Shown: positions 17,366-38,339 of the stretch, piece by piece
How positions within the stretch are numbered: the first letter of the stretch is position 1
Layout: the number at the start of each line of letters is the position of its first letter
Source: Gammaproteobacteria bacterium
GTDB taxonomy: Bacteria; Pseudomonadota; Gammaproteobacteria; Ga0077536
Length of the DNA: 64,000 nt
Assembly (NCBI GenBank): GCA_024235015.1
Contig: JACKNG010000001.1
Span: 77,934 to 141,933 of the forward strand
Direction: 5' to 3'
The notes under the pieces: model-generated
Database searches by the model: none
What the model saw: only the letters and a program-made list of their open reading frames with translations
Told to the model about the DNA's origin: nothing
Program-made: the position numbers and the translations under genes

Positions 17366-17449
17366 CGCGGTGGACGCTCGGCGCAGGGCCGCGGGCACGG
17401 CCATCCTAACCGCAGCACCGCCGCGGTGGAATCGGTGCCGCGACCGGGT

Positions 17450-17464: not shown

Positions 17465-17596
17465 AGCTGGCGACCCTTGGGCAGAACGCCCGTCGGCCCC
17501 ATGTCTGAGGGCAATCAAGGCACGTCGTCGCCCGGCGTGCTCCGATAGCAACGACTGCCAGCCCCATGCCGGTGGTACGCACAGAGGAGATTGCCG

Positions 17597-18055: not shown

Positions 18056-18082
18056 GGCGCTGCTCGGCTGGGGTGCGGGAAC

Positions 18083-18107
18083 GGGGACAGTTAGGAAAAC
18101 TGTCCCC
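18083..18107. repeat. Palindrome GGGGACAGTT-aggaa-AACTGTCCCC (REP-like, GGGGACAG family) in the convergent intergenic region
   Basis: 10-bp perfect arms with a 5-nt loop, 28 bp after the cytochrome c stop. Confidence 0.65.
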
Positions 18108-18163
18108 ACCTTGGTGGTCTGATCGGTGCGGTCTGTTGACTGCCACCGCGGCGCCTCAGACGC

Positions 18164-18188
18164 GGGGAAGGTTTTCCTAACCGTCCCC
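18164..18188. repeat. Second, near-inverted copy GGGGAAGGTT-ttcct-AACCGTCCCC of the same palindromic repeat
   Basis: It is the reverse complement of the 18083 copy with 3 mismatches, the loop being the exact reverse complement. The two hairpins sit 56 bp apart between the convergent cytochrome c and MBL genes and likely act as a bidirectional terminator. Confidence 0.6.
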
Positions 18189-18238
18189 CTCTCCGGCAAC
18201 CGGAAGCAATCGAAGCCCCCGACCCGCTCCAATCTATC

Positions 18239-20182: not shown

Positions 20183-20439
20183 CGTCGCTCCTGGTGTGGT
20201 GAGCCGTGCGTTGGAGGTCGGGAGGATAGTCGAGCCGCGCCGGCTTGGCGACACGTCGGCGCGTCGCCCGTCGATCACGCGCCGTGCACACCATCGCCCT
20301 GGCCGCGCCGCACGCGGGCAATCTGCCCGGCACCGAGCGGGTGCCGCGCCCTGTCGGTGGCGCGGTCGCGCTCGCTAGCGTGTGGTCCCTGCTGTGCCAC
20401 GCATTCGTGGCCAGCGCTCTTATCCGGGAGACACGCCGC

Positions 20440-22775: not shown

Positions 22776-22902
22776 CGTCGGTTCTCCGCGGACTGTGGGC
22801 GACGGGCGGATGGCGGCAGGCTGGTCGCGCCGCCACGCTCTGCGCGGCACGTTAGCCGCGCAACGCCGGGCGCACAAGGCAGCGGCCTGCCGGCCGGCGG
22901 GA

Positions 22903-23421
22903 TCAGTCCGAGGCGGCCCGCGCCGCGCCGTGACGGGCGGCGAGGATGGAGTGCAGGCGCGCGCTGCCGGGGGCGAACTGGTAGCGCTGCGGGAAGGCCC
23001 GCCAGGCGCGTGCCCAGGCCGCGGCGCGGCTTCCTTCGCCGACCGGCAGGTCGACGCTGTCGAAGCCGCAGCCGACGAGTTGCTGCGCCTGGTCGGGCAT
23101 GAGTGGCCCGCGCGCGCGAAGTTCGCCGGCGAAACCGGCGCACCGCAGTGCATGACCGACGGAGAAGCCGCGGCCATCGCCGACGTCGGCGAAGCCGACT
23201 TCGACCAGCCCGAGTCGCGGTAACCAGTCCAGCAGGCCGTCGACCAGCGGCGGGGTCTCGAGCGCGACGCCGAGCGGCCGCGGCCAGGCCGTCGTAGCCA
23301 TCGCGGCAGGCAGGGCCGTCGCCGGCACGATGACGTGGCCAAGATCTTCTACAGCGTCGGGCCAGTCGACGAGCCGGCGCCAGGAGTCGGCGCCGAGGCG
23401 GCCCTCAACGATCAAGGGCAC
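22903..23421 (-). CDS. DUF934 protein (sulfite-reductase-associated)
   Basis: A GTG start at 23421 with a GGGAGG RBS gives MPLIVEGRLGADSWRRL... (172 aa). It overlaps the cysI stop by 17 nt; the gene order cysI-DUF934 is conserved in pseudomonads. Confidence 0.65.
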   Translation of the reverse strand: MPLIVEGRLGADSWRRLVDWPDAVEDLGHVIVPATALPAAMATTAWPRPLGVALETPPLVDGLLDWLPRLGLVEVGFADVGDGRGFSVGHALRCAGFAGELRARGPLMPDQAQQLVGCGFDSVDLPVGEGSRAAAWARAWRAFPQRYQFAPGSARLHSILAARHGAARAASD

Positions 23422-25066
23422 GGCAGGCCTCCCGGAACGCGTCGACGCCGAGCCGCCGCACGGTATCGAGGAAGTGCTCGCCACGACGGCGCTCACGCCG
23501 GTAGTGGGCGACAAGTTCGTCGATCGCCTCGAGCGCGGTCTCGGCCTCCACGGCACGGCCGAGACGCTCACCGATCGCCGCGTCGTCCCCGGCAGCGCCG
23601 CCGAGGGTGAGCTGGTAGTACTCGCGGCCGCCCTTCTCCACGCCGAGGATGCCGATGTTGGCGGCGTGGTGGTGGGCGCAGGCATTGACGCAGCCCGAGA
23701 TGCGGATCGCGAGCGGACCGATGTCGCCGGCTTCCCGCTCGTCGTCGAAACGCGCGGCGAGGCGTCGCGCGAGCGGGATCGAGCGGGCGTTGGCGAGGTT
23801 GCAGTAGTCGAGCCCGGGGCAGGCGACGACGTCGCTCGCGCAGTCGAGGTTCGCCCGGGCCAGCCCGCGCGCGACCAGCGCCTGCCACAGCGCGGCCAGG
23901 TCGCAGCGTCTCACGTGCGGCAACACCACGTTCTGCGTGTGCGTGACGCGCAGCTCGCCGGCCGAGTAGCGCCCGACGAGATCGGCGAGCAGGCGCATGT
24001 CGTCAGCGCTCGCGTCGCCCGGTGCGGCGCCCGGCTGCTTGAGGGTCACGACGACGATGGCGTGGGTGTCGAGGCGGTGGCGCAGGACGTTACGGCGCAG
24101 CCAGCGCCGGTGCGCCGCGTCGTCGGCGATCTGAATCCCGACGTCGCCGGTGTTCGCACTTGCGTGGAACACCGCGGGCGGCAGCGCGAAAGCCGCCGCG
24201 ATGCGCTCGAGCTCGGCGCCGACGAGGGCGAACCGATCGCGCGGGGTGGCGGCGAACTCGCGTTCGACCTCGGCACGGAACGCTTCGAGGCCGAGCGCCT
24301 GGACGAGGATCTTGATGCGCGCCTTGTACTTGTTGTCGCGCCGCCCGTGCAGGTTGTACACGCGCAGGATCGCTTCGAGGTAGGGCAGCAACTGCTCGAG
24401 CTCGAGGCCGGGGTGGAGGGGCTCGGCGATGACCGGCGTACGGCCCTGCCCGCCGCCGACACTGACGGCATAACGCGGCTCACCGTCGGCGCCGGCGACG
24501 ATACGCACGGCGAGATCGTGGAACTGCAGCGCGGCGCGGTCGGCAGCGGCGCCGCTCAGCGCGAGCTTGAACTTGCGCGGCAGGAAAGCGAATTCCGGGT
24601 GCAGGGTCGACCACTGGCGCAGCAGCTCGGCGAGCGGGCGCGGGTCGCGGTACTCGTCCGCGGCGACCCCAGCGTAAGCGTCGCAGGTGATGTTGCGGAT
24701 GCAATTGCCGGAGGTCTGGATGGCGTGCATGTCGAGCGCCGCGAGGTCGGCGAGCAGGTCCGGCACGCGCTCGAGTTCCAGCCAGTTGAACTGGACGTTC
24801 TGGCGCGTGGTGAAGTGACCGTAGCCGCGGTCGTAGCGCTCGGCGATGGTGGCGAGACCCGCCAGCTGGCGTGCGCTCAGGGTGCCGTAGGGGATGGCGA
24901 CCCGCAGCATGTAGGCATGGCGCTGGCGATAGAGCCCGTTCTGCAGGCGCAGCGGTGCGAACTCCTCCTCGCTCAGGTAGCCCGCGAGGTAGCGCGCGAC
25001 CTGGTCGCGGAACTGGCCGACGCGTTCGTTGATCAGGGCACGGTCGAAATCGTCGTAGCGGTACAT
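23405..25066 (-). CDS. cysI: Sulfite reductase (NADPH/ferredoxin) hemoprotein beta-component
   Basis: 553 aa with a MYRYDDFDRALINERV... N-terminus and nitrite/sulfite reductase 4Fe-4S/sirohaem motifs (CPGLDYC, CVNACAHH). Confidence 0.85.
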   Translation of the reverse strand: MYRYDDFDRALINERVGQFRDQVARYLAGYLSEEEFAPLRLQNGLYRQRHAYMLRVAIPYGTLSARQLAGLATIAERYDRGYGHFTTRQNVQFNWLELERVPDLLADLAALDMHAIQTSGNCIRNITCDAYAGVAADEYRDPRPLAELLRQWSTLHPEFAFLPRKFKLALSGAAADRAALQFHDLAVRIVAGADGEPRYAVSVGGGQGRTPVIAEPLHPGLELEQLLPYLEAILRVYNLHGRRDNKYKARIKILVQALGLEAFRAEVEREFAATPRDRFALVGAELERIAAAFALPPAVFHASANTGDVGIQIADDAAHRRWLRRNVLRHRLDTHAIVVVTLKQPGAAPGDASADDMRLLADLVGRYSAGELRVTHTQNVVLPHVRRCDLAALWQALVARGLARANLDCASDVVACPGLDYCNLANARSIPLARRLAARFDDEREAGDIGPLAIRISGCVNACAHHHAANIGILGVEKGGREYYQLTLGGAAGDDAAIGERLGRAVEAETALEAIDELVAHYRRERRRGEHFLDTVRRLGVDAFREACRALDR

Positions 25067-25067
25067 G

Positions 25068-26474
25068 TCACACCGCCACGGCGTCGGGCAGGCTGGCCGT
25101 GGTCACGGCCGCCGCGTCACGCGGATGCAGGCCGAGCAGGATCACGGCGGGCCCGCTCGGCGCATGCCGGCGCAGGGTGCTCGTCAGCGTGGCCAGGGTG
25201 CAGGCCTGCACGCGCTCGCCGGCTTGCCCGACGGCCTCGACGATGGTCACCGGGGTGTTCGCATGGGCGCCGTGCAGGAGCAGCCGGCCCTGTACGAAGT
25301 GCGCTGCGCGCACCCCCATGTAGATGGCCGCCACCGCGCCCGCACGGGCCAGCCGGCGCCAGTCCTGCTCGGCATAGCCGCGGGTGTCGTGGCCGCTGAC
25401 GATGGCGAGCGCGCTGTTGCGCCCGCGCCGGGTGAGCGAGGCGCCGATGCGTGCAGCCGCGGCGGCAGCCGCGGTGATGCCGGGGACGACTTCGTAGTCC
25501 ACGCCTGCCGCCACCAGGGCGTCGAGCTCCTCGTCGGCGCGGCCGAAGACCATCGGGTCGCCTGATTTCAGCCTGACCACCTGCAGGCCGGCCCGGGCCT
25601 CACGGATCAGGCGTTCGTTGATGGACCGTTGCGCCGGGCTCGGCAGCCCGGCGCGCTTGCCGACGTCGACGATGCGTGCGTCGCGCCGCGCGAGGTCGAG
25701 GATGCGGCGGTCGACGAGGCCGTCGATGAGTACCACGTCGGCCTGTTCGAGCCGGGCGCGGGCGCGTTCGGTGAGCAGCTCGGGATCGCCCGGCCCGGCG
25801 CCGACCAGGCTCACCCTGCCCCGCGCGGCGAACATTACCGCGGCGCCGTCGCGACGCAGCGCGTCGTGCAGCAGGCGCCGGGCCTGTTCCGCACCCTGAT
25901 CCCGGAGCAGGCGGGCGCCGTCGTGGGCGAACAGCCGTGCCCAGAAACGCCGCCGTGCGGCCGGCGCGAGCGTGCTGCGCACCACCGGCCGCAGCGCGCC
26001 GGCGAGACGGGCCAGCGCAGCGGTCTCGGGCCCGAGCAGTTTCTCGATGCGCGACTTGAGGTGCCGGACCAGGGTCGGCGCTGCACCCTCGCTGCCGATG
26101 GCGACCACGACCGGGGCACGATCGACGATGGCCGGCGAGACGAAATCGGACGCCGCCGCGTCGTCGACGGTGTTGCACAGGACGCCGAGCCGTGTGCAGC
26201 GCGCGCGCAGTCCTCGCTGTGCGGGGAGCGCGGCACCGGCCAGGTAGACCAGGCGCGAACGCTGCAGCGCGTCGTCGTCGGGCAGGCCTGCGTGCAGGGC
26301 GATGCGCCCGTCGCACGCCAGCGCCACGAGCTCGCGGTCGGCCTGCGCGGTGTAGACCACGAGCTGCGCCGGAGTCTTGAGCAGGTGATGCAGCTTGGCG
26401 TGCAGCGGCACGCCCGCGCCGACCAGGCAGACTCGTGCATCGCGCAGGTCGAGGTAGATGGGGAGGTAGTTCAT
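25068..26474 (-). CDS. cysG: Siroheme synthase (precorrin-2 dehydrogenase/ferrochelatase + uroporphyrinogen-III C-methyltransferase)
   Basis: 468 aa from MNYLPIYLDLRDARVCLVGAGV (Rossmann), with a C-terminal SAM methyltransferase domain (VSLVGAGPGDPELLT...). The start at 26474 has a GGGAGG RBS; the upstream extension in the track is not supported. Confidence 0.85.
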   Translation of the reverse strand: MNYLPIYLDLRDARVCLVGAGVPLHAKLHHLLKTPAQLVVYTAQADRELVALACDGRIALHAGLPDDDALQRSRLVYLAGAALPAQRGLRARCTRLGVLCNTVDDAAASDFVSPAIVDRAPVVVAIGSEGAAPTLVRHLKSRIEKLLGPETAALARLAGALRPVVRSTLAPAARRRFWARLFAHDGARLLRDQGAEQARRLLHDALRRDGAAVMFAARGRVSLVGAGPGDPELLTERARARLEQADVVLIDGLVDRRILDLARRDARIVDVGKRAGLPSPAQRSINERLIREARAGLQVVRLKSGDPMVFGRADEELDALVAAGVDYEVVPGITAAAAAAARIGASLTRRGRNSALAIVSGHDTRGYAEQDWRRLARAGAVAAIYMGVRAAHFVQGRLLLHGAHANTPVTIVEAVGQAGERVQACTLATLTSTLRRHAPSGPAVILLGLHPRDAAAVTTASLPDAVAV

Positions 26475-26494
26475 GCGGTTGGCTCGTGTCGAGG

Positions 26495-27142
26495 TCACTG
26501 TTGCTGTTGCAGCCCGCACTCGAGTGTGCTGCCGGGCTTGGTCGGGTCGACGTAATCGTGGTTGTCCGGCAGCGCGTGGCGGGCCAGGTAGCCTGCGACG
26601 TCGGCGTCCGTCCACTCGAACAGCGGCGCCAGGCGGGTCACCCCGCCATAACCGCGCGAGCGGATGCCCAGAGTGTCGCGGTAGGCGGTCTGGCCGCGGC
26701 GGATGCCGGTCAGCCACAGGTCGGGGTGCAGTTCGTCGAAGGCGCGACGGAAGGGTTCGAGCTTGAAGTCCTCGACGAAACGTTCGAACGTCGCCTCACC
26801 GGGGCGCGGGGGGGGGCCGTGCAGCGCCACCCAGCGCGCCGGGCTGACGCGTGGCATGCAGGTTTTCAGCGCAAGGCCCAGGCGGGCTTCGAGCGCCGCG
26901 GCGTAGCGGTAGGTGGTCGTGGTGTTGTAACCGGTGTCGACCCAGATCACCGGGATTCCCCGGCGCACGCGCTGCACGAGGTGCAACAACGCCACCGCGC
27001 CGGGACGGAAGTTGGTGGTCAGAACGGGCCGCCGGGCGTGTTCGAGGGCGGCGCGGACGAGGGCCAGCGCAGTGCGCTCGCGGGTGTCGCCGGTGATGGC
27101 CGGCGGCCTGGCCGGAGATGGATGATCGAGGGTGCCCTGCAT
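26495..27142 (-). CDS. cysH: Phosphoadenosine phosphosulfate (PAPS) reductase
   Basis: 215 aa, PAPS reductase family with a C-terminal ECGLQ motif (the ECGLH catalytic-Cys region) and no Fe-S Cys cluster, so the PAPS rather than the APS type. Confidence 0.8.
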   Translation of the reverse strand: MQGTLDHPSPARPPAITGDTRERTALALVRAALEHARRPVLTTNFRPGAVALLHLVQRVRRGIPVIWVDTGYNTTTTYRYAAALEARLGLALKTCMPRVSPARWVALHGPPPRPGEATFERFVEDFKLEPFRRAFDELHPDLWLTGIRRGQTAYRDTLGIRSRGYGGVTRLAPLFEWTDADVAGYLARHALPDNHDYVDPTKPGSTLECGLQQQQ

Positions 27143-27180
27143 GGCGGCTGACCTGACTGCTATCGCAATGGCCGTGCATC

Positions 27181-27250
27181 CTGCCCATCGAGTTTAATTC
27201 CGTAAAAGAATATTAAAAAATATATTTATTCCATAAAGTCGATAACGACG
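27181..27250. promoter_or_regulatory. Sharply AT-rich segment inside the 369-bp divergent intergenic region (cysH operon and acx-like operon promoters)
   Basis: ttaattccgtaaaagaatattaaaaaatatatttattccataaagtcgataa (~20% GC in a 68% GC genome), followed by the palindrome GACGCGCC-N8-GGCGCGTC at ~27245. Confidence 0.5.
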
Positions 27251-27511
27251 CGCCTTGCCCGTGGCGCGTCACGCCGGTCGCGGCGTTGTCAGGGGCGCCG
27301 TCACTACCCGCCCCGGGGTGCCGTGCGCATACCGGTGCACGTGCTTTCGATGGCCCGCGTGAACGCCGGCGCAGGCGCGTGACCGGGCGGGGTTTGCCCG
27401 CGGCTGGCCAAGTTGCCTTTTATCAGGCGAGTCCCTAGGCTTGCGGCGGTTCGACGGCGTACGTCGCGGCGGCAAAGAGGTCCGTCCCGCGACCCTTGAG
27501 GGAGGACATCC

Positions 27512-29758
27512 ATGGCCACGATTGCCCGCGAAGCGGTACCCCACGATCCGGCCCGGCGCGAGCAGCGCCAGCCGACCCTGCGCGAGATGATCGCCGAACG
27601 CGACCGGCTCACCGCCGAGACCGGGCACTACTACGGCGTCACCGAACTCAGCCTGCGCGACTCCGATCCGATCCGTTACGAACGCTTCTACTCCAAGCTG
27701 CATGCCGCGGTGCTGGCGGCACGCGAATCGGCACGCTTCGTCGCCGCCTCGCCGGGTTCGCGCGAGATGGGCGAATGCCTGTGGGGCATCGCGACCCCCG
27801 AGGGCGACACCCTGGCCGTGTCGCTCGGCTTCCTCTCCCACACCGTGATCTTCCCGACCTCGATCCGCTACATGGCGGACAACGATTACGACGTCAATGA
27901 CGGCATCGAGGACGGTGACGTCTACGCCGTGTCCGACGGCCTCACCGGCGGCGTGCCGCACCCCGGCGATTTCTATTCCTTCGTGCCGATCTGCATCGAC
28001 GGCGAGATCGTCGCCTGGGCCATCGGTATCAACCACCTGATGGAGAACGGCGCGCCGGTGGCGGGGTCCTGGGCGACCTTCTCGGTCGACACCTTCATGG
28101 ACGGCCTGGTCTGCCCGCCCATGCGCACCGGGCGCAAGCTCAAGCAGGAATCCTGGTGGAAGGCGATCTGGGAGCGGCGCACGCGCGCGGCGACCATGAA
28201 CATCCTCGACGACAAGATGCGCCTGGCCGGCTGCGCGATGATCCTCAAGGCCACGCACGAGCTCATCGACGAGTTCGGCATCGAGTACTACAAACGCGCC
28301 ATCCGCGAGGTCATCGAGGAATCGCGCCGCATGGTCGTCGACAACATGCGCGCGACCCTGGTGCCCGGCACCTACAACGGCTGTGCCTTCCGCCTGGTCA
28401 AGTACGAAGGCCTGCAGAACGTCTGGTCGCATGCCAACAAGAACACCCTCATCCACGTGCGCGGCAGCGTCGAGCCGAACGAGAACGGCCTGCTGCTCGA
28501 TGCCGAGGGCAGCTCCAGGTGGGGCTACCACTCCTACAATGCGACCCCGGGCGGCGTCGACTGCGCGGTGTTCCTCGGCATGATCAATTCCTTCTCGCAC
28601 AACACCAAGGTCACCGCCGGCATCGATCTCGCCGTACAGCGCAACTACCCCAAGGGCAGCATCTACAACCCGGACAACGAGTACACCTCGAACGCCAACC
28701 TGTGGGCGCAGACGGTGGCCCTGAACAGCATCGGCTTCGGCGCCGTCAACCGCGCCATGTTCGCCCGCGGCTACCTCGAGGAGGTCTTCACCGTCGACGG
28801 CAACTGGGGCGCTTTCCAGGGCGCCGGCACCACCGCGGATGGCACCAACTACGGCTTCACCAACTTCGAATGGCTGGGCGGCACCGGGCGCGGCGCGTGG
28901 TGCTACAAGGACGGCGAGCCGCTGGTGTGGGCGGCGTGGTCGCAGATGGCGACGATCGGCGACGCCGAGGAATTCGAGTCGACCGTGCCGCCACTGTTCT
29001 ACCTTGGGCGCAAGCTGCTGCCGGGCTACTTCGGCTACGGCAGGTACCGCGGCGGGCCGGGCAACTCGGCCGTGCACTGGTGCGTGCAGCCGGGGCGCCA
29101 CGTCGCCCTCACGCGGCCCAACGGTGGCCTCTCGTGCACGCCCTCGGTCGGCATCGGCATGAGCGGCGCCTACCCCGGGCCGGGCAGTTTCATGATCTCG
29201 GCGCGCGGAACCAACCTCGATGACCTCATCGCCGAGGGCGAGACGCCGCGCGATGCGCGCGAATTGCTGGCGCAGGTCGAGGCCGGCGCGCTGAAGGTCA
29301 AGAACCTCGAGATCTGGAAGACCGACTGCCCCGAACTCGCACTCAAGGACAACGACCTGTTCGTCGATGCCGCCGGCTCCTCGGGCGGCTGGGGCGATCC
29401 GCTCGAACGCGACCCGCGGCTGGTCATCGCCGACCTCGACAGCGGCATTTGCCCGGACTACGAGTTCGTCAGCAACATGCACGGCGTGGTCGCCCACCGC
29501 CACGACGACGGCCACTGGGAACTCGACGAGGATGCGACGCGGGCCAAGCGCGCCCTGCTGCGCGAAGCACGGCTGGAGGAGTCGATGCCGGTCGAGAACT
29601 GGTGGCTGGCCGAGCGCGCACGCGTCGAGCGGCGCGACTTCGCGCCCGAGGTCAACGAGATGTACGCGCAGAGCCTGTCGTTCGCCAAGTTCCGCACCGA
29701 GTTCACCCGTTTCTGGCAGTTGCCGGGTGATTTTTCCTTCGGCGAAGCGGAGGTCTGA
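27512..29758 (+). CDS. Acetone carboxylase alpha-subunit-like protein (hydantoinase B/oxoprolinase family)
   Basis: 748 aa, collinear with AcxB (GHYYGVTELSLRDSDPIRYERFYSKLHAAVLAARESA, GYLEEV...). RBS GAGGGAGGA before the ATG. Confidence 0.85.
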   Translation: MATIAREAVPHDPARREQRQPTLREMIAERDRLTAETGHYYGVTELSLRDSDPIRYERFYSKLHAAVLAARESARFVAASPGSREMGECLWGIATPEGDTLAVSLGFLSHTVIFPTSIRYMADNDYDVNDGIEDGDVYAVSDGLTGGVPHPGDFYSFVPICIDGEIVAWAIGINHLMENGAPVAGSWATFSVDTFMDGLVCPPMRTGRKLKQESWWKAIWERRTRAATMNILDDKMRLAGCAMILKATHELIDEFGIEYYKRAIREVIEESRRMVVDNMRATLVPGTYNGCAFRLVKYEGLQNVWSHANKNTLIHVRGSVEPNENGLLLDAEGSSRWGYHSYNATPGGVDCAVFLGMINSFSHNTKVTAGIDLAVQRNYPKGSIYNPDNEYTSNANLWAQTVALNSIGFGAVNRAMFARGYLEEVFTVDGNWGAFQGAGTTADGTNYGFTNFEWLGGTGRGAWCYKDGEPLVWAAWSQMATIGDAEEFESTVPPLFYLGRKLLPGYFGYGRYRGGPGNSAVHWCVQPGRHVALTRPNGGLSCTPSVGIGMSGAYPGPGSFMISARGTNLDDLIAEGETPRDARELLAQVEAGALKVKNLEIWKTDCPELALKDNDLFVDAAGSSGGWGDPLERDPRLVIADLDSGICPDYEFVSNMHGVVAHRHDDGHWELDEDATRAKRALLREARLEESMPVENWWLAERARVERRDFAPEVNEMYAQSLSFAKFRTEFTRFWQLPGDFSFGEAEV

Positions 29759-29761
29759 GCG

Positions 29762-30334
29762 ATGAGCGAGGAATTCAGCGTCAGCCGCGATCTCATCCGC
29801 CAGCTCGTCGAGGGCACCATCGACGACGACAACACCGAGCGGCTGCTCAAGCTGCCGCGCAAGGACAAGGATCGCTTCCTCAACTACATCGCCGTGCTGC
29901 AGGAACGTGTGCCGTGGGACGATCGCATCCTGCTGCGCCTGGGCGACAAGCTCTACGTGGTGTCGAAAGGCGCCGGGCGGCGCGAGACCCAGTGCGAGTG
30001 CGGTCACAGCTTCGGCGACTACCGTGAGAACTGGAAGCTGAAGTGCCGCATCCGCGTGCGTGACACCTTGGAGCGTATGGCCGAGGTCTACGATCCCGCC
30101 CCGGCCGTGCCCGAGGCGGGCTGGCAGGAAATCCGCGAATTCTTCTGCCCCGGCTGCGCCACCCAGCACGCGGTCGAAGTGGTCGCGCCGGGTTACCCGG
30201 TGGTATTCGAACTGCTGCCGGATCTCGATCGCTTCTACCGCGATTACCTCGGCCAACCGCTCGCGGACGAAGCCGGGGACTGGTACGAGGACCGCTCGGC
30301 GCAGGTGACGGCGCACTGGAAACAAGCCGGCTGA
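29762..30334 (+). CDS. Acetone carboxylase gamma-subunit-like protein (AcxC-like Zn-ribbon subunit)
   Basis: 190 aa with IAVLQERVPWDD, CECGHSF..NWKL..RVRD, and IREFFCPGC, matching AcxC blocks; starts 4 nt after the alpha-like stop. Confidence 0.8.
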   Translation: MSEEFSVSRDLIRQLVEGTIDDDNTERLLKLPRKDKDRFLNYIAVLQERVPWDDRILLRLGDKLYVVSKGAGRRETQCECGHSFGDYRENWKLKCRIRVRDTLERMAEVYDPAPAVPEAGWQEIREFFCPGCATQHAVEVVAPGYPVVFELLPDLDRFYRDYLGQPLADEAGDWYEDRSAQVTAHWKQAG

Positions 30335-30384
30335 GTACGCGGCGCGGTCGGGACGCCGGCCTAACAAACCGGGACGGAGCTAAG

Positions 30385-30450
30385 GGGGACAGTATACTTT
30401 CGCACGCGCTGTGGGCCGGCCCGTGCGCCGGGCGAAAGTATACTGTCCCC
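30385..30450. repeat. Long hairpin GGGGACAGTATACTTTCGC-N28-GCGAAAGTATACTGTCCCC (GGGGACAG palindrome family) between the acxC-like and acxA-like genes
   Basis: 19-bp perfect arms with an internal AT-rich GTATAC core; the spacer is itself partly palindromic (CGCACG...CGTGCG, GGGCCGGCCC). Confidence 0.7.
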
Positions 30451-30541
30451 ATTCCCGCTACCCGTCCCCGCCCGACGCACAGACGACGACGCGCTGCCGC
30501 ACCTGCGGTGGCGAGCAGAATTTCTTCGAGGGGAGACATCC

Positions 30542-32728
30542 ATGAGCACGAGCTCCGAGCACGTCGGCGCCGAGCGCGACCTGATCCTGGCGCTCGACGC
30601 CGGCGGCACCATGACCGACGCCATCCTGGTCAAGCCCGATGGCACCTTCACCGTCGGCAAGTCGATCAGCCGGCGTGAAGACCAGGCGTTGAGCTACTAC
30701 GAGTCGGTCGCCGACGCCGCGCAGATGATCGGTCTCGATGCCGAGACCGTGCACCGCCGCTGTGCCGCGGACATCTACTGCGGCACCGGCATGCTGAACA
30801 GCGTGCTGACCGGCGACGGGCGCAAGGTCGGGCTGGTCGTCACGCGCGGCTTCGAGGACATCACCGTCATGGAAGGCGGTCTCACCTACCTCGGCCAGAG
30901 CCAGGCCGAGGGCCTGCACCAGCAATTGCACCGCCACACCCGGCAGCTGGTCGATCCGCGCAACGTGGTCAGCGTCAGCGAGCGCATGGGCGGCGGATGC
31001 TACCAGGGCAACATCCACCTGCCGGCCGGGCACACGCTCATCCCGGTCAACGAGCGCCAGGTGCGCGAGGGCGTCAACAAGCTGCTCGACCAGGGCTGCG
31101 AGGTCATCGGCATCCTCTTCATCTACTCCTTCGTCGATCCGCGCCACGAGCACCAGGCGCGCGACATCGCGCGGCAGGAGATCGCGAAACGCGGGGTCGA
31201 GGTGCCAGTGGTGTGTTCGGCCGACGTCGCGCCGGTGGCGAAGGAGAACAACCGCCTGAAGAGCCTGCTCTTCCAATGCTTCGCTGCCGAACAGGTGCGC
31301 GAATCCCTGCTCGACGTCGAGCGGCGCGCGCGCGGTCTCGGCTTCAGCGGCCGCCTGCTGACCCTGTTGTCCTACGGCGGCGCGGTGAACATGGAATACC
31401 CGCGCCTCTACGAGACCATGATCTCGGGGCCCATCGGCGGCCTCATCGGCGCCCAGTTCGTCGCCAGCCAGCTCGGCCTCGACAACGTCGTCACCGCCGA
31501 CATGGGCGGCACCAGCTTCGATGTCGGCCTGCTCGTCGACGGCCGCATGGGCATCGCGCGCAGCGCCGACATCGCCGGCCACCGTCTCGCCCTGCCCATG
31601 GTCGAACTCGACTCGGTCGGCAGCGGCGCGGGCTCGGTGGTGTGGGTCGACGAGTACAAGCGCCTGCACGTCGGGCCGGACTCGGCCGGCGCCCGGGTCG
31701 GCATCTGCCACGAGTTCGATCGCCTCACCGTCACCGACATCAACGTCGCGCTCGGCTACGTCGACCCCGACTACTTCCTCGGCGGCCATATCAAGCTCGA
31801 TCGCGAACGTGCCCTGGCCGCGCTCAAGGAAGCCGTCGCCGACCCGCTCGGCCTCGACGTCTACGAGGCCGGTGCCGGCGTGCTCGCCATCGTCAACGCC
31901 GAGATGAACGACCTGCTGCGTACCATGGTCGCGGCCAAGGGTTACGACACGCGCGACTTCACCCTGCTCTACTACGGCGGCGCCGGCCCGGTGCACATGT
32001 ACGGTTTCGCCGAGGGTATTCCCTTCAAGGACGTCATCACCCTGCCGTGGGCGGCCGGCTTCTCGGCCTTCGGCGCGGCCTGCGCCGAGTACATGCATCG
32101 CTACGACCGCGGCCTGCGCGTGCTGGTGCCGGCCAGGGCCGATACAGCCGAACTCGCGGCGACGGCGACCGAGGTCGATCGCGCCTGGCGCGAACTCGAA
32201 GCGGAAGCCCGCGCCGAGATGGCGGCCGAAGGCATTGACCCGGACAAGGTGCGCTTCCGCTACGGCGTCGCCATGCGCTACATCGGCCAGATCGAGAGTT
32301 TCGATACCGCCCTCGCCAGTGGCGACATGCGCGGCCCCGAGGACATCCGCGCCATGGTCGAGGCCTTCGAGACGATGTACTCCAAGGTCTATCCCGAGGG
32401 CGCCAAGTTCAGCGGCGCCGGCTACTCGCTGACCGAGGTCAGCATCGAGGCGATCGCGCCCAAGCCGCAGCCGCGCCTGGCGCGCCATGCGCTGGCCGGC
32501 AGTGAACCCGCCGCCCAGGCACGGGTCGGTACGCGCGAGGTCTACCACCAGGATGCCTGGGTGACGTTCGCCGTCTACGAGATGAAGGAGCTCACCGCCG
32601 GCAATGTCGTGCACGGGCCGGCCATCATCCGCGATCCCATGACGACGGTGGTCGTCCCGCCCGGCCACGAGATGGCCTTCGACGAACACCTGATCCTGCA
32701 CTACCGCGCCAGCGCGGCCACGCACTGA
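30542..32728 (+). CDS. Acetone carboxylase beta-subunit-like protein (hydantoinase A/oxoprolinase family)
   Basis: 728 aa, collinear with AcxA (LALDAGGTMTD, ISGPIGGLIGA, DMGGTSFDV, ELDSVGSGAGS...). Confidence 0.85.
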   Translation: MSTSSEHVGAERDLILALDAGGTMTDAILVKPDGTFTVGKSISRREDQALSYYESVADAAQMIGLDAETVHRRCAADIYCGTGMLNSVLTGDGRKVGLVVTRGFEDITVMEGGLTYLGQSQAEGLHQQLHRHTRQLVDPRNVVSVSERMGGGCYQGNIHLPAGHTLIPVNERQVREGVNKLLDQGCEVIGILFIYSFVDPRHEHQARDIARQEIAKRGVEVPVVCSADVAPVAKENNRLKSLLFQCFAAEQVRESLLDVERRARGLGFSGRLLTLLSYGGAVNMEYPRLYETMISGPIGGLIGAQFVASQLGLDNVVTADMGGTSFDVGLLVDGRMGIARSADIAGHRLALPMVELDSVGSGAGSVVWVDEYKRLHVGPDSAGARVGICHEFDRLTVTDINVALGYVDPDYFLGGHIKLDRERALAALKEAVADPLGLDVYEAGAGVLAIVNAEMNDLLRTMVAAKGYDTRDFTLLYYGGAGPVHMYGFAEGIPFKDVITLPWAAGFSAFGAACAEYMHRYDRGLRVLVPARADTAELAATATEVDRAWRELEAEARAEMAAEGIDPDKVRFRYGVAMRYIGQIESFDTALASGDMRGPEDIRAMVEAFETMYSKVYPEGAKFSGAGYSLTEVSIEAIAPKPQPRLARHALAGSEPAAQARVGTREVYHQDAWVTFAVYEMKELTAGNVVHGPAIIRDPMTTVVVPPGHEMAFDEHLILHYRASAATH

Positions 32729-32738
32729 GGAAAACAAC

Positions 32739-33599
32739 ATGAAACTCGTGACCTTCACCGAGGGCGGCCACACGCGCCCCGGACGCGTCGACGGCGACAG
32801 CGTCGTCGACCTCGGCGACGCCGGCCTGCCGGGCGAGATGAGTGCCCTGCTCGCCGCCGGCGCCGCTGCGCTGGCCAGGGCCGCGGCCGCCGATGGTGCC
32901 CGCTTTGCACTCGATACGGTGACCCTGGAAGCCCCGATCCTGCGCCCGCCCAAGATCCTCGCCGTCGGCCTCAACTATCGCGATCACATCGAGGAAACCG
33001 GTCTCGACACGCCCAAGGTACCGATGATCTTCAACAAGCAGTCGACTGCCGCGCACGGACCCTATGCGCCGTTTCACCTGCCGCGGGTCTCGACCAAGCT
33101 CGACTACGAGGGCGAACTCGGCATGGTCATCGGGCGACGCTGCCGCCACGTGCCGGCGGCGCGGGCGCGCGAGGTGATCGCCGGTTACACGGTGTGCAAC
33201 GACGTCAGCGTGCGCGACTGGCAGATGCGCTCGCAGACCTTCATCATGGGCAAGTCCTTCGACACCCACTGTCCCTTCGGGCCGTGGATCACCACCGCCG
33301 ACGAGGTGCCCGACCCGCACGCGCTGGACCTGAAGACCTGGGTCAACGGCGAGCTGCGCCAGGATTCCAACACCCGCCACCTGGTGTTCGACTGCTTCGC
33401 CCTGGTCGAGCACCTCACGACCGCCTTCACCCTCGAGCCCGGCGACCTCATTCTCACCGGCACGCCGAGCGGGGTCGGCATCGGCTTCGAGCCCAAGCGC
33501 TTCCTCGCCGCCGGCGATCACGTGAAGGTCGAAATCCAGGGCCTGGGTTTCATCGCCAACGAAGTCGTGGCCGAGCCCGACTCGACCACGCTGATCTGA
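32739..33599 (+). CDS. Fumarylacetoacetate hydrolase (FAH) family protein
   Basis: 286 aa with the FAH fold signature (GLNYRDH, YEGELGMVIG, GTPSGVG). Confidence 0.85.
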   Translation: MKLVTFTEGGHTRPGRVDGDSVVDLGDAGLPGEMSALLAAGAAALARAAAADGARFALDTVTLEAPILRPPKILAVGLNYRDHIEETGLDTPKVPMIFNKQSTAAHGPYAPFHLPRVSTKLDYEGELGMVIGRRCRHVPAARAREVIAGYTVCNDVSVRDWQMRSQTFIMGKSFDTHCPFGPWITTADEVPDPHALDLKTWVNGELRQDSNTRHLVFDCFALVEHLTTAFTLEPGDLILTGTPSGVGIGFEPKRFLAAGDHVKVEIQGLGFIANEVVAEPDSTTLI

Positions 33600-33613
33600 C
33601 GGGGGCGCAAGCC

Positions 33614-34603
33614 ATGACGACGATGATGAAAGCCTGGCAGTTCGAACGCTACGGGCGCTACGACGAGGTCCTCGAGTGGGTCGACCGGCCGCTGCCCGAG
33701 CCTGGCCCGAACGAGGCGCGCGTGCGCACCCGGGCGGTGTCGCTCAACTTTCCCGATCTCCTCATCACCCAGGGCCTGTACCAGGCGCGGGCGCCGCTGC
33801 CGGCGGTATCCGGCGTCGAAGGCGTCGGTATCGTCGAGGCGGTCGGTCCCGGCAGCCCGTTCGAGGTCGGCCAGCGGGTGGTCTCGTTCAACAACCTCGC
33901 CGGCATGCTGGCGGACTGCTTCATCGCCCACAACGCGACCTCGTGGGCGGTGCCGGACCACGTCAGTGACAGCCAGGCGGCTGCGCTCAGCACCACCTAC
34001 GGCACCTCCTACTACGCGCTCGTGCACCGCGCCCACATCCAGCCCGGCGAGACCCTGCTCGTGGCCGGTGCCGCGGGTGGCGTCGGCCTCGCCGCGGTCC
34101 AGCTCGGCAAGGTTTTCGGCGCGCGCGTCATCGCCGCCGCGGGTAGCGCCGAGAAACTCGCCGTGTGTCGCGACAACGGTGCCGACGAGCTCATCAACTA
34201 CCAGGAAGAAGACATCGTCGAACGGGTCAAGGCACTGACCGATGGCCGCGGCGCCGACGTCATCTACGACCCGGTGGGCGCGGATCTGTTCGACCAGATG
34301 AAACGCTGCATCGCCTGGGAAGGCCGCATGCTGGTGATCGGTTTCGCCGGCGGGCGCATCCCCACCATCGAGTGCAACCGCATGCTGCTGAAGAACATGG
34401 CCGTGGTCGGCCTGGCCTGGGGCCCGTGCGTCGAGCGCAACCCGGCCCAGGGCGCTGCTTGCCAGCAGCATCTCTACGACCTGTTACGGGTCGGCGCGAT
34501 CGACCCGGTCATCTACCGCACCCTGCCTTTCGCCGAAGTGCGCGAAGGCATGCGCCTGATGGAGAGCCGCGCACTCTACGGCAAGATCGTCATCGAACGC
34601 TGA
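33614..34603 (+). CDS. NADPH:quinone oxidoreductase / zinc-independent MDR-family alcohol dehydrogenase
   Basis: Start MTTMMKAWQF at the ATG at 33614; GAAGGVG Rossmann motif; 329 aa. Confidence 0.85.
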   Translation: MTTMMKAWQFERYGRYDEVLEWVDRPLPEPGPNEARVRTRAVSLNFPDLLITQGLYQARAPLPAVSGVEGVGIVEAVGPGSPFEVGQRVVSFNNLAGMLADCFIAHNATSWAVPDHVSDSQAAALSTTYGTSYYALVHRAHIQPGETLLVAGAAGGVGLAAVQLGKVFGARVIAAAGSAEKLAVCRDNGADELINYQEEDIVERVKALTDGRGADVIYDPVGADLFDQMKRCIAWEGRMLVIGFAGGRIPTIECNRMLLKNMAVVGLAWGPCVERNPAQGAACQQHLYDLLRVGAIDPVIYRTLPFAEVREGMRLMESRALYGKIVIER

Positions 34604-35121
34604 ACGCGTGGGCGCGCCGCGGTGGTGCGCCGCACAATCCGGCTGCCCGGAGACGGCGACGAAATCGTTGCGAGCCGGGCCGTACGCGGTCTATGCTTGG
34701 GCTGCGCGCGCAAGGCGCGATTTCTTTAGACGAGGACTCGAACAACAGCAGCACACGCGGGTGGTGCAGCGCCCCGGGGGCAGAACCGCGCAACGGCGCG
34801 CTCACCCCGGACGACGCCGATGCCCCCCCGGTCCGCAGCGCCAGGTCTTCGTTTCCCATCGCACGAGTTTCCCAGGATCCGTTCGCTTGTTTCCGCACCC
34901 GAGATCGCGCCAGCCGCACGACCCCTACCGGGCGTTCGTGGCGAGCTCTTCGCGGCGTGTCCGGGTGAGATCTGTTCCGTGCCATCGAATTGTCTCTAGC
35001 CGCATGGCCTCGTCCAGCGCCATGCCTTCCGTACTTCGCTACCTGTTCCGGTCCGTGTCACCGCCGTCAGTCGCGGCCCGGGGAGTCAGTCGCGACGGCG
35101 CGTTTCCAGAGGCAATCACGC

Positions 35122-35442: not shown

Positions 35443-36369
35443 TCAGTTCTCGATGACGGGCTTGACCTCCTCGATGATGCGCCGGGTCTGCTCGACGGTG
35501 TCCTGCTCGCCGGCGGCGATCGGGAAGAGCACGAACTTCGAGGCGCCGGCGTCGATGTAGCGGCGCAGGCGATCGATCACGTCCGCGCTGCTGCCGATGC
35601 AGAACAGCGGGTCGAGGTCGAGCGTTTCGCCGATGCCGGTGCGCTTGACGAAGGGCGAGTTGACCACGGCGTCGTCGTCGCGGCTGCCGATGCGGTAGGC
35701 CAGCGACGTGCCGTAGTGGTCGTCGTCGATGTGGCGGCCGAGCCGCGCGGCCTCGGCCTTGATCCCGGCGATCACCGTGCGCACGTCGTCGGGCGAGGCG
35801 ATGCCGCCGATCCAGCCGGTGCCGAGACGCGCGGTGCGCTTGATTGCGGCCTGGCTGTTTCCGCCGATCCACAGCGGCAAGGGCTGCTGCACGGGGCGTG
35901 GCGCAATGGTCGCATCGCGGTACTGGAAGTACTTGCCCTCGTAGGTCACCTTCTCCTCGCGCCACAGACGGTCGATGAGTTCGAACATCTCGTTGGCGAT
36001 CGAACCGCGATGGTCCGAACTGCGCCCGGTCGCGCCCCACTCCGCCGCCTTCGGGTAACCGACACCGAACATCGGCAGCAGGCGCCCGTTGGACAGGTAG
36101 TCGATGGTCGCGCACTGCTTGGCCAGCACCAGCGGGTCGCGCAACGGCGCGACGATCGCGTTCATGCCGAACTTGATGCGTTCGGTGCAACCGGCCAGGG
36201 CGGCCAGCGCCGACAGCGATTCGAGGTAGTTGTCAGTCGAGATCAGGCGGTCGGACTGCCACACCGAGTCGACCCCGGCACGTTCGAGCATCTCCACCCA
36301 GCGGAAATAGCCGCGGCCATCCTCGAAGGGGTAATTGACGAGGCCGAAGCCGATCCGGATTTTCAGCAT
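35443..36369 (-). CDS. LLM-class (F420/FMN-dependent) oxidoreductase
   Basis: 308 aa from MLKIRIGFGLVNYPFEDG... The 148-aa Arg/Ala-rich extension in the track is not supported. Confidence 0.75.
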   Translation of the reverse strand: MLKIRIGFGLVNYPFEDGRGYFRWVEMLERAGVDSVWQSDRLISTDNYLESLSALAALAGCTERIKFGMNAIVAPLRDPLVLAKQCATIDYLSNGRLLPMFGVGYPKAAEWGATGRSSDHRGSIANEMFELIDRLWREEKVTYEGKYFQYRDATIAPRPVQQPLPLWIGGNSQAAIKRTARLGTGWIGGIASPDDVRTVIAGIKAEAARLGRHIDDDHYGTSLAYRIGSRDDDAVVNSPFVKRTGIGETLDLDPLFCIGSSADVIDRLRRYIDAGASKFVLFPIAAGEQDTVEQTRRIIEEVKPVIEN

Positions 36370-36386
36370 GGCGGCGCCCCCCGGGC

Positions 36387-37151
36387 TCACATTTCCATCG
36401 GTAGCTTGAAATGCGCGCGCAGGACGCGCTCGCGGTGTTCCATCAACAACGGCGTCAGCGCTGCTTTCACCTCGGGCGCGAGGAGTTCGAACATGGCGCG
36501 GAAACCCTCGGCGACCGGCACGTCCTCCGGCGGCGGCAGGAGGTAGATGGTCGAGAACGCGGCCCAGTAGAAATCGACCGCGGTGAGGGTGTCGCCGACG
36601 AAGTAGGCGCAGCCGCGCGCCCGCTGCGCCTCGAGTTCGGCATGCAGCAATTGCAGCGTTTCGACCTGGCGGCGATCGGCGAGCGCGACATCGCTTTCGT
36701 TGTAGTTGTACTTGCGCGCCATGCTGAGCACCGGCGCCGGCGGCTGGCCCGATTCCATCGCCGGGCGGAACAGTGACAGACGCCGGTTCCAGCCGAGACC
36801 GAGCGGGCCACACATCTCGTAGGCGAGGCCGAGTGCCCGCGCGCGATCGGCGCGTTTCTCCGGCAGCAGGCGCTTGTTGGGGGCGAGACGCTCGAGGAGG
36901 AAGAGGATGTCGTCCCAGCGATTGAGCGGCGGCTCGTCGTTCCAGGCCACCACCGGGCCGCTGTTGATGCCGGCCCAGGCCACCAGTGCCACGTTGTCAC
37001 CGCCCGGCATCTGCGCGCCGCAGGCGAAGTCGAGGCCCTTGTATTCCATCATCGCCTTGGCCGCCTGGCCCCACGGGCTCGGCGTGCCGGCGACGAGGAC
37101 GAGGCGCAGGCCGTCGCGCTTGATCAGGTCTTCGATGGCGATGAATTCCAT
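36387..37151 (-). CDS. Glutathione S-transferase family protein
   Basis: 254 aa from MEFIAIEDLIKRDGLRLVLVAGTPSPWG... with GST N- and C-terminal domains; GGAGGG RBS before the ATG at 37151. The 737-aa track ORF is mostly wrong-frame read-through. Confidence 0.8.
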   Translation of the reverse strand: MEFIAIEDLIKRDGLRLVLVAGTPSPWGQAAKAMMEYKGLDFACGAQMPGGDNVALVAWAGINSGPVVAWNDEPPLNRWDDILFLLERLAPNKRLLPEKRADRARALGLAYEMCGPLGLGWNRRLSLFRPAMESGQPPAPVLSMARKYNYNESDVALADRRQVETLQLLHAELEAQRARGCAYFVGDTLTAVDFYWAAFSTIYLLPPPEDVPVAEGFRAMFELLAPEVKAALTPLLMEHRERVLRAHFKLPMEM

Positions 37152-37271
37152 GGTCCCTCCCCGGGCTTGCTGACAGGTCGTGCTCGAACAGCCGCACGAG
37201 CGGGCCGTATCGAGTGCGCTATCGTACGATGCCGGGCGCAGGGCCGCGACCGTGCGGCGCGAGAGCGAGCG

Positions 37272-38339
37272 ATGAACGATACGATCGAACGACTGTGGGC
37301 GGCACTCGTCGAACACCGCGAGGGCCGCGCCTGGCGCAGCGCGCGCTGTACGCTGGCCGGCAATCGGCGCCCGTGGCAGGGCACCGGCCTGCGGCTCGCG
37401 CAGGGCCAGGCCTACTCGATCCTCGCCGACGGCCGTGTGCACTGGTCTGAGCGCCATCCCCATCTGCACGGCGGACCGGGCTTTCATCTCTACGCGCGGG
37501 TCAGCCCCGGCGGACGCCTGGTCAACGTCACCCGCACGAGCGGCAGTTTCGTCGCCGATGTCGCGGGCGAACTCGAACTCGGCATCTATCTCGGCATGTG
37601 GCGCGATGACTACGGCGGCCTCGATACCCCCGACAGTGCCTACGCCCGCCTGCGCGGCGATATCGACGTCGTCGTGCTGGCCTGGCCGGGCGCGGCCGTG
37701 CGCGGACTGGCCACCCTCGCCGCGGAACTCGACGATCCCCTGCTCCAGGTCGAGGCTGCGCGCGCCGCCGCGCCGGTGGCGCCGCCGCGCGGCTGGGATT
37801 ACCTCGTCGAAACCGGCACCAGCGACATCTGGCAAGCCTGTGACGAGCAGGCGCCGCGCATCTGCCTGCACGCCGTCGACGACCAGGGCATCATCCGCAA
37901 GCCGCTCGACTTCGAACTGCAGCCCGGCACGCAACTCCAGTGGCGCTGGCGACTGGACGAGCATCCGAGCCGTGCGCCCGAGGACAGCAGGCTCGCCCAC
38001 GACTACGTCTCGATCGCGCTCGAGTTCGACGACGGCCGCGATCTCACCTGGCTGTGGAGCAGCTGCCTGCCGGTCGAGACCTGGTTCGCCTGCCCGGTCA
38101 AGGCCTGGAGCGCGCGCGAGACCCACTACGTCGTACGCAGCGGTCTGCAACGCCGTGGCACCTGGGTGAGCGAGCAGCGCGACGTCCACGCCGACGTCGC
38201 GCGTGCCCTGGGTACGGTGCCCTGCCGCATCGTGGCCTGCTGGCTGATCGCCGTGGCGAGCTTCCAGCACGGCACCGCGCGGGCGGCCTTCGAGGACATC
38301 GTCCTGGCTGCTGGCACCACTCGCCAGGTCGTGCTGTAA
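37272..38339 (+). CDS. Cytoplasmic uncharacterized conserved protein (paralogue B of the 20440..21696 protein)
   Basis: 355 aa from MNDTIERLWAALVEHREG with no signal peptide, collinear with paralogue A (RPWQGTGLRLAQGQAYSILADGRV, PPRGWDYLVETGTSDIWQACDEQAPRICLH, LQWRWRLDEHPSRAPEDS, LAHDYVSIALEFDDGRDLTWLWS, RDVHAD). Confidence 0.6.
   Translation: MNDTIERLWAALVEHREGRAWRSARCTLAGNRRPWQGTGLRLAQGQAYSILADGRVHWSERHPHLHGGPGFHLYARVSPGGRLVNVTRTSGSFVADVAGELELGIYLGMWRDDYGGLDTPDSAYARLRGDIDVVVLAWPGAAVRGLATLAAELDDPLLQVEAARAAAPVAPPRGWDYLVETGTSDIWQACDEQAPRICLHAVDDQGIIRKPLDFELQPGTQLQWRWRLDEHPSRAPEDSRLAHDYVSIALEFDDGRDLTWLWSSCLPVETWFACPVKAWSARETHYVVRSGLQRRGTWVSEQRDVHADVARALGTVPCRIVACWLIAVASFQHGTARAAFEDIVLAAGTTRQVVL

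Follow-up and report, generated by a model that had tools for sequence, protein, structure and literature searches.

An operon for an uncharacterised relative of acetone carboxylase, with a linked fumarylacetoacetate-hydrolase-family gene, in a genomic island of uncultured Gammaproteobacteria

The stretch of DNA described here (64,000 nucleotides, called the window below) comes from a Gammaproteobacteria bacterium (GenBank assembly GCA_024235015.1, contig JACKNG010000001.1, positions 77,934 to 141,933), and at 27512-34603 it carries a real, well-conserved operon for an uncharacterised relative of acetone carboxylase. The alpha subunit places the enzyme in a clade separate from the canonical acetone carboxylases, and in this operon, as in those of its close relatives, the genes for the three subunits are followed by a gene for a protein of the fumarylacetoacetate hydrolase (FAH) family, which may act on the carboxylation product. 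Five plus-strand genes with high third-position GC stand head to tail in a region of about 68 % G+C, namely alpha, gamma and beta (AcxB-, AcxC- and AcxA-like), FAH, and a zinc-free reductase of the medium-chain dehydrogenase/reductase (MDR) superfamily (Qor). The gaps between them measure 3 nt (alpha-gamma), 207 nt (gamma-beta), 10 nt (beta-FAH) and 14 nt (FAH-Qor), and from this spacing we infer that the five genes are co-transcribed. An earlier reading made from the sequence alone (the sequence-only reading) had described subunits resembling Xanthobacter AcxB, AcxC and AcxA in the order alpha-gamma-beta, with a FAH protein and an MDR quinone reductase within 15 bp of each other; Pfam and PDB matches, gene coordinates and measured gaps agree with it. 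The only terminator-like site between the operon genes and the next gene lies 3' of Qor (34703-34719) and is probably the end of the transcription unit.

Among solved structures, all three subunits come closest to the acetone carboxylases of Xanthobacter autotrophicus and Aromatoleum aromaticum, which share 68 % identity with each other (PMC10865871). Identities were computed against sequences rebuilt from PDB alignments (A. aromaticum for alpha, Xanthobacter for beta and gamma) and amount to 32 % for alpha (E 1e-105 to 5m45_A and 1e-106 to 5svb_A), 38 % for beta against AcxA (E 1e-156) and 47 % for gamma against AcxC (E about 1e-50). The only solved relatives that gamma matches are the gamma subunit of acetone carboxylase and the beta subunit of acetophenone carboxylase. 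When 1.8 billion representative proteins were scanned, about 60 full-length Acx-alpha-like clusters came up, and about 30 representatives of 50 %-identity clusters score nearer to the window alpha than the canonical enzyme does. A scan of a genome collection with an alpha alignment found mostly generic HyuB proteins at about 25 % identity and, among the matches listed, about nine usable loci of the clade. In a neighbour-joining tree of alpha, a simple distance method applied to 72 sequences and 718 columns with hydantoinase B outgroups, the clade of the window is monophyletic in 100 of 100 bootstraps. The same support was obtained for a FAH-linked subclade and, separately, for the canonical group, made up of A. 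aromaticum alpha (the one validated sequence included) and three representatives. On this tree the carboxylase belongs to a separate clade and is not a canonical acetone carboxylase, as the sequence-only reading had suggested. A 2026 preprint has noted that deep-branching AcxB homologues of uncertain specificity exist (10.64898/2026.08.16.745133).

The FAH gene is a constant partner of the close relatives (loci compared are given below by their handles, such as L009). Where alpha is at least 70 % identical to that of the window, a FAH orthologue follows beta directly in 31/31 loci with enough downstream sequence, across gaps of 0-25 nt and often with the stop codon of beta overlapping the start of FAH; Qor comes next after FAH in 23 of 28 loci (it is missing in L009, L086, L107, L118 and L126). 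A second group, with alpha 45-60 % identical, has FAH linked in none of its 21 loci and an acetoacetyl-CoA-synthetase-like gene (ACAS_N plus AMP-binding) linked in 17; some of these ligase-linked operons also carry a short-chain dehydrogenase/reductase (SDR) gene and a crotonase gene. FAH and the ligase gene are mutually exclusive beside the operon. The alpha-gamma-beta-FAH unit also occurs in unrelated contexts, in L009 with a divergent GntR regulator gene and in L086. The sequence-only reading had made its proposal depend on subunits outside the characterised acetone carboxylases and on FAH and Qor as conserved neighbours in relatives, and both were found. At two of the compared loci we observed additional genes: in L086 a second, caprolactamase-like HyuA/HyuB pair and a DAO-family oxidase gene adjoin the unit (9585-13451), and in L139 a second alpha-like gene fragment lies after beta (5546-6103).

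The order alpha-gamma-beta, in turn, is found in all clade members with readable context, including about 60 metagenome contigs, with hosts among Gammaproteobacteria, a Brachymonas metagenome-assembled genome, Cycloclasticus, Paenibacillus validus and Kyrpidia spormannii. The order beta-alpha-gamma is kept in the nearest outgroup or sister representative (P0241, 42 %) and in the more distant L010, L149 and L153, so that the rearrangement is a derived trait shared by the clade. The gene order had been taken beforehand as a cue to an unusual substrate. This does not hold: the order is clade-wide and common to the ligase-linked members, which look like ordinary small-ketone carboxylases, and it therefore says nothing about an unusual substrate.

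The residues needed for function are in place, their roles being taken from PMC5543143 and PMC8453981. The metal ligands of alpha, E89, H150, D153 and H175 in Xanthobacter (PMC5543143), correspond to E88, H150, D153 and H175 here, unchanged in alignment A1 and in 32 clade sequences. The first of them is Glu in acetone carboxylase and Asp in lactamases and acetophenone carboxylase (PMC8453981); E88 is thus of the acetone carboxylase type. The Cys4 zinc site of gamma and the adenine-stacking Phe are kept in all clade sequences checked, and the beta motifs DAGGTMTD and DMGGTSFD (phosphate) and GGAGP (adenosine) in 9 of 9. All AcxB metal-binding and AcxA nucleotide-binding residues, which the sequence-only reading had named as worth checking, are conserved. 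The pocket of acetone carboxylase is narrowed by Trp/Phe residues, L108 and M187 (PMC8453981); here W401, F456 and W479 are kept, and L108 is replaced by Phe and M187 by Trp in both subclades. Taken together, the conserved residues suggest that the carboxylase is functional and its pocket small. The inter-subunit switch pair of Xanthobacter, alpha-E85/beta-N578, has become alpha-R84/beta-E585. As both residues are invariant across the clade, the change looks charge-paired, with the contact preserved, and the pair may be a salt-bridge version of the allosteric contact in Xanthobacter.

These features also bear on whether the enzyme could instead be an ATP-dependent ring-opening hydrolase, similar to lactamases or hydantoinases. 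The superfamily does include such enzymes, with the His/Asp/His metal site in common (PMC8453981), NCBIfam models of caprolactamase subunits are matched weakly, and an Amidohydro_2 gene occupies a neighbouring slot in L090 and L003. However, the operon encodes a PF08882 gamma subunit, its alpha has the Glu-type first ligand and, at 748 residues, is long as in acetone carboxylases, and the match to acetone carboxylase alpha (E 1e-105) far exceeds that to the caprolactamase beta chain 6yra_B (7e-12). In L003, moreover, Amidohydro_2 coexists with the carboxylase genes and does not replace them. We consider such a hydrolase very improbable. A lactam substrate, which the sequence-only reading had entertained, is likewise unlikely given the gamma subunit and the Acx-type Glu ligand (PMC8453981).

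The two subclades can also be told apart within alpha, where 33 positions, conserved within each, separate FAH-linked from ligase-linked sequences. These positions are enriched within five residues of metal or pocket residues (13/67 vs 20/229 conserved positions, Fisher p = 0.025) and include, in the FAH-linked and ligase-linked subclade respectively, F154 vs T next to D153, W476 vs H and R377 vs S. A480, T481 and D484 are likewise specific to the subclade of the window.

The FAH protein itself is a clear member of its family (PF01557, 249.6 bits vs a cut-off of 23.9) in which the metal motif ExE/D is present (DYEGEL, CNDVSVRD) and Lys and His/Glu lid residues are visible, whose roles we take to be those of FAHD1. 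It falls below all NCBIfam equivalog cut-offs (LRA6 226 vs 500, HpaG C-terminal 182 vs 276), and its best solved relatives score about 187 bits. Qor has GVEG in place of GHE, the nucleotide motif AGAAGGVG and no catalytic-zinc ligands; its score against TIGR02824 (236.5) is under the cut-off of 296.8, so that no subfamily is assigned. Solved zinc-free MDRs related to it reduce C=C bonds, enones or quinones. We know of no FAH-family enzyme that works with an ATP-dependent carboxylase; a literature search linking acetone carboxylase with fumarylacetoacetate hydrolase found no paper, and searches for acetone-carboxylase-like enzymes and for Cycloclasticus with acetone carboxylase found nothing.

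By homology, the locus would encode a complete ATP- and bicarbonate-dependent, biotin-independent carboxylase of the acetone carboxylase type. Beta would phosphorylate bicarbonate and a small, enolisable carbonyl compound; the two intermediates would come together at the Mn/Fe site of alpha, where a beta-keto acid would form, and gamma would serve as a structural zinc subunit. We infer both the carboxylase activity and the order of the steps from sequence, and the most economical reading is that the whole clade consists of small-ketone carboxylases. To our knowledge, only acetone/butanone and acetophenone are established as substrate classes of ATP-dependent, biotin-independent ketone carboxylases. 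In the ligase-linked subclade the beta-keto acid would pass to CoA activation, as in classical acetone metabolism. Since FAH holds the operon position of the acetoacetyl-CoA-synthetase-like gene of the sister subclade, it could act on the carboxylation product, either cleaving a C-C bond hydrolytically or tautomerising a 1,3-dicarbonyl acid, and so replace CoA activation, and the zinc-free MDR reductase would add an NAD(P)H-dependent accessory step. The reading we tentatively prefer, at somewhat less than even confidence, is that carboxylation comes first and that FAH acts on its product.

Several points weigh against it. All clade members are biochemically uncharacterised, and Qor is missing in 5 of 28 loci. 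The residues that narrow the pocket are kept or bulkier, which suits a diketone less well than a very small substrate such as acetone. The reactions known of FAHD-type hydrolases are the cleavage of 2,4-dioxo acids and the decarboxylation of oxaloacetate, and the carboxylation of methyl ketones yields 3-oxo acids. Finally, FAH and Qor occur in a related lineage (L090-L092, FAH 76 % identical) whose loci have the same island with Amidohydro_2-FAH-Qor-CMD and no carboxylase. In that lineage FAH must obtain its substrate independently of carboxylation, which makes the coupling of the two steps plausible and not obligate, and FAH-Qor appears as the constant core with the carboxylase as an optional module. 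It is this independence, together with the very small pocket and the substrates of FAHD-type enzymes, that holds our confidence down.

The same observations can be read as a second type of acetone or butanone carboxylase, with FAH and Qor as unrelated genes of the island and with acetoacetate activated by enzymes encoded elsewhere. The acetoacetyl-CoA-synthetase-like, SDR and crotonase genes of the sister operons would agree with this, as would the MimR_N/GAF/sigma-54 regulator near one of them, the small aromatic pocket residues that are identical between subclades, the occurrence of FAH-Qor without carboxylase in L090-L092, and the family III CoA-transferase gene of the window (13664-14911). 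Yet chance neighbourhood accounts poorly for a FAH gene adjacent in 31 of 31 loci, with stop/start overlap and also outside the island (L009, L086), for the mutual exclusion of ligase and FAH beside the operon, and for subclade-specific substitutions that cluster near the active site, and we regard this explanation as doubtful.

The steps could also run in the opposite order, FAH splitting a beta-diketone or dioxo acid (perhaps after C=C reduction by Qor) into a carboxylic acid and a methyl ketone, which the carboxylase would then salvage. Every FAH-type hydrolysis (EC 3.7.1.x) releases a methyl-ketone fragment, and such an order would account for FAH-Qor in genomes without the carboxylase, for a pocket suited to small substrates and for a Qor whose solved zinc-free relatives are C=C, enone or quinone reductases. 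It leaves unexplained, however, why the CoA ligase gene is lost exactly where FAH appears; in addition, FAH sits after the carboxylase genes in the operon and no such substrate can be named from the data. We think it unlikely.

In a further and more novel reading, again with carboxylation first and FAH second, the substrate of the FAH-linked subclade would be a small carbonyl compound that is not acetone (for example a keto acid, or a beta-diketone such as acetylacetone), and FAH would split the resulting 1,3-dicarbonyl acid by hydrolysis; this seems to us improbable. The sequence-only reading had proposed a non-acetone pathway of this kind; the clade position and the FAH linkage lend its suspicion of a non-canonical function partial support. 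The gene order, the hairpin and the neighbouring cysHGI genes, which it had invoked, are incidental or generic to the clade.

The hairpin in question is a GC-rich palindrome in the gamma-beta spacer (coordinates of this and all other features are given in Table 1). It folds at -57 kcal/mol (z = -6.3 vs shuffles) and belongs to a set: all six GGGGACAG octamers of the window fall in three palindromes, at 7917-7959, 18083-18107 (plus 18164-18195) and 30385-30450, which are intergenic and have GGGGACAG...CTGTCCCC ends. L089, the closest relative, has the hairpin too (7649-7713), its stem altered by a single compensatory change from C-G to T-A, and the hairpin is absent from all other relatives' loci compared; in the same spacer, other GC-rich relatives have unrelated stem-loops and AT-richer ones have none. 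A terminator or a known RNA was considered and rejected, as the T-run is missing and no Rfam family matches the hairpin or the operon region. We read it as a lineage-specific element of this genome similar to repetitive extragenic palindromes (REP-like) that would at most modulate mRNA stability or processing. The 66-nt hairpin between gamma and beta is thus where the sequence-only reading had placed it, and as an element of the operon it is common only to the window and L089.

Upstream of alpha, a promoter is presumed to lie in the 369-nt spacer that separates it from cysH. No sigma-70 consensus was found in this spacer (27143-27511) and no -24/-12 (sigma-54) promoter match upstream of alpha, nor was a GAFTGA-type signature of sigma-54 activators found in any frame of the whole 64 kb window, so that the absence of an AcxR regulator, remarked upon beforehand, was confirmed on this scale. 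Sigma-54 control of the operon was rejected on both counts. A MimR_N/GAF/sigma-54 activator gene is present in Cycloclasticus L088 (1-894), about 9 kb upstream of a ligase-linked operon that itself directly follows an uptake-type cluster (MMPL/DUF1302/DUF1329), so that a regulator gene of the sigma-54 family does lie near the operon in at least some members of the clade. The initiation contexts of alpha (27495-27514, GAGGGAGGACATCC-ATG) and beta (30525-30544, GAGGGGAGACATCC-ATG) are nearly alike, which would be consistent with both large subunits being translated in a matched way even though a 207-nt spacer precedes beta. A redox two-component system of the RegB/RegA (ActS/ActR) type is encoded at 15570-18232, upstream of the island described below, and a kinase homologous to that of this system adjoins luciferase-like genes in L002; the system could be a regulator of the island.

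In uncultured Gammaproteobacteria, the operon forms one module of a conserved island with many genes for luciferase-like oxidoreductases (LLM). The order is an MBL-fold lactonase-like gene, LLM1, the divergent LLM2, alpha-gamma-beta-FAH-Qor, a gene for an RRM protein and, on the opposite strand, LLM3. The closest relative, L089, is about 85-87 % identical in nucleotide sequence and has only about 150 bp between LLM2 and alpha. The region 22778-27571 of the window, with the cysI-like gene, cysG, cysH and flanks, is without counterpart in L089, and no cysH homologue was found beside the operon in 61 metagenome loci; among about 35 relatives, only this window has a cys block at the operon. This sulfate-assimilation block appears to be an insertion into the island. 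The divergent arrangement with cysHGI across an AT-rich region, pointed out by the sequence-only reading, is real, with its 369-nt spacer, and it is peculiar to the window.

Some further features of the island deserve mention. The three LLM paralogues fall in an 'F420-dependent' class by NCBIfam, and up to seven LLM genes occur in 17 kb among relatives (L090). We considered whether they could be F420-dependent secondary-alcohol dehydrogenases supplying a ketone and did not retain the idea, since their solved relatives are too distant to say. The RRM_1 gene follows the operon in most island-lineage relatives with downstream sequence available, after a 518-nt non-coding spacer in the window (34604-35121) that has equal length in L089 and no match in Rfam. 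An Amidohydro_2 (PF04909) gene lies just upstream of FAH-Qor in L090-L092 (6583-7743) and just upstream of the carboxylase genes in L003 (372-1523). Its product lacks close relatives that are characterised, the best solved ones being PtmU3 and 4dzi, a putative TIM-barrel hydrolase; as a replacement for the carboxylase it was rejected, as L003 carries both.

Table 1. Features of the window around the carboxylase operon (positions are those of the window)
Feature	Position	Strand	Remarks
Family III CoA-transferase gene	13664-14911		
MBL-fold lactonase-like gene	18239-19111	-	conserved island partner
LLM1	19142-20278	-	TIGR03559 class; conserved island partner
DUF3047 gene	20245-21696	+	between LLM1 and LLM2
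LLM2	21753-22802	-	orthologue directly divergent from alpha in at least 26 relatives
NirA/CysI-like sulfite reductase	23405-25066	-	in 22778-27571 block
Sirohaem synthase	25068 to ~26480	-	in 22778-27571 block
PAPS (phosphoadenosine phosphosulfate) reductase (cysH)	26495-27142	-	in 22778-27571 block
cysH-alpha spacer, 369 nt	27143-27511	.	AT-rich at ~27190-27250; Shine-Dalgarno context GAGGGAGGACATCC-ATG of alpha
alpha, AcxB-like, Hydantoinase_B, 748 aa	27512-29758	+	PF02538, E 4.7e-55; metal ligands E88, H150, D153, H175
gamma, AcxC-like, 190 aa	29762-30334	+	PF08882 Acetone_carb_G, E 1.2e-38; Cys4 zinc site CxC ... CxxC
GC-rich palindrome GGGGACAGTATAC...GTATACTGTCCCC, 66 nt	30385-30450	.	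in 207-nt gamma-beta spacer; no T-run
beta, AcxA-like, 728 aa	30542-32728	+	Hydant_A_N/Hydantoinase_A/Hydant_A_C; motifs DAGGTMTD, DMGGTSFD, GGAGP
FAH-family protein, FAHD1/HpaG/Rv2993c type, 286 aa	32739-33599	+	PF01557 FAA_hydrolase, E 3e-74
Zinc-free MDR reductase, Qor/PIG3-like, 329 aa	ATG 33614, stop 34603	+	ADH_N and ADH_zinc_N matches
Terminator-like stem-loop, then ATTTCTTT	34703-34719	+	consensus match only; such matches near chance number in region
RRM_1 RNA-binding protein, 88 aa	35122-35388	+	conserved downstream neighbour
LLM3	35443-36402	-	conserved downstream neighbour
Second DUF3047 paralogue	37167-38339		flanks operon

The locus points to an unstudied bacterial use of ATP and bicarbonate in the breakdown of small ketones. 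The clade is widespread and clearly delimited (marine, freshwater and soil metagenomes, and some Firmicutes), with a gene order of its own and two mutually exclusive downstream partners, and the dichotomy between FAH and ligase offers a concrete way to test for new carboxylase chemistry and to approach the heterotrophic incorporation of CO2 by aquatic Gammaproteobacteria. If the FAH-linked subclade does carboxylate a compound other than acetone and FAH then splits the product, the operon would represent a CoA-independent catabolic route in which ATP-driven carboxylation readies a molecule for C-C cleavage, and the Amidohydro_2 enzyme (L003, L090) could provide a second entry that joins this route. 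It also counsels caution against labelling genes of this clade 'acetone carboxylase' in metagenome surveys.

Among known systems, the nearest is acetone carboxylase AcxABC (EC 6.4.1.6; PDB 5SVB, 5SVC, 5M45), which has the same three subunit types (alpha of 776 residues, 748 here), Glu/His/Asp/His ligands for Mn/Fe, the gamma Cys4 site, the beta ATP motifs and most of the pocket Trp/Phe. The enzyme of the window differs from it in belonging to a separate clade (32/38/47 % identity for alpha/beta/gamma), in its switch pair (R84/E585 in place of E85/N578) and in having Phe and Trp in place of L108 and M187. In AcxABC, moreover, the genes run beta-alpha-gamma (acxA-acxB-acxC) under the sigma-54-dependent AcxR, whereas the operon here runs alpha-gamma-beta, with no such activator or -24/-12 promoter found, and its downstream partner is a FAH hydrolase and not the usual CoA ligase. 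The ligase-linked operons of Cycloclasticus, Kyrpidia spormannii, Paenibacillus validus and marine metagenomes (alpha 45-60 % identical) share the gene order and the catalytic and pocket residues. They differ in carrying the acetoacetyl-CoA-synthetase-like gene, with or without SDR and crotonase genes, and never FAH or Qor, and they are likewise uncharacterised.

Acetophenone carboxylase, caprolactamase and N-methylhydantoinase are all much more distant than the acetone carboxylases. Acetophenone carboxylase ApcABCDE (PDB 5L9W) belongs to the same superfamily, has a gamma-like small subunit and activates its ketone and bicarbonate with ATP, but the similarity is far weaker (E 2.5e-33 for alpha, 6e-9 for gamma), scores against the NCBIfam Apc equivalogs stay below the cut-offs (121, 40 and 355 bits vs 1500, 250 and 1500), and the operon encodes only one HyuA-like protein, without the second HyuA-like subunit and the epsilon subunit of Apc. 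Lactamases and hydantoinases (CapAB, HyuAB, OplAB) have two subunits, no gamma and Asp as first ligand, in contrast to the gamma and Glu found here, and the caprolactamase models are matched below their cut-offs as well (CapA 372 vs 1000, CapB 43 vs 1000). The FAH protein, finally, shares the PF01557 fold and the metal motif with enzymes of the FAHD1/YisK/HpaG/LRA6 type (acylpyruvases, oxaloacetate decarboxylases and 2,4-diketo-3-deoxy-sugar-acid hydrolases), and stands beside them as a relative whose scores lie under their equivalog cut-offs.

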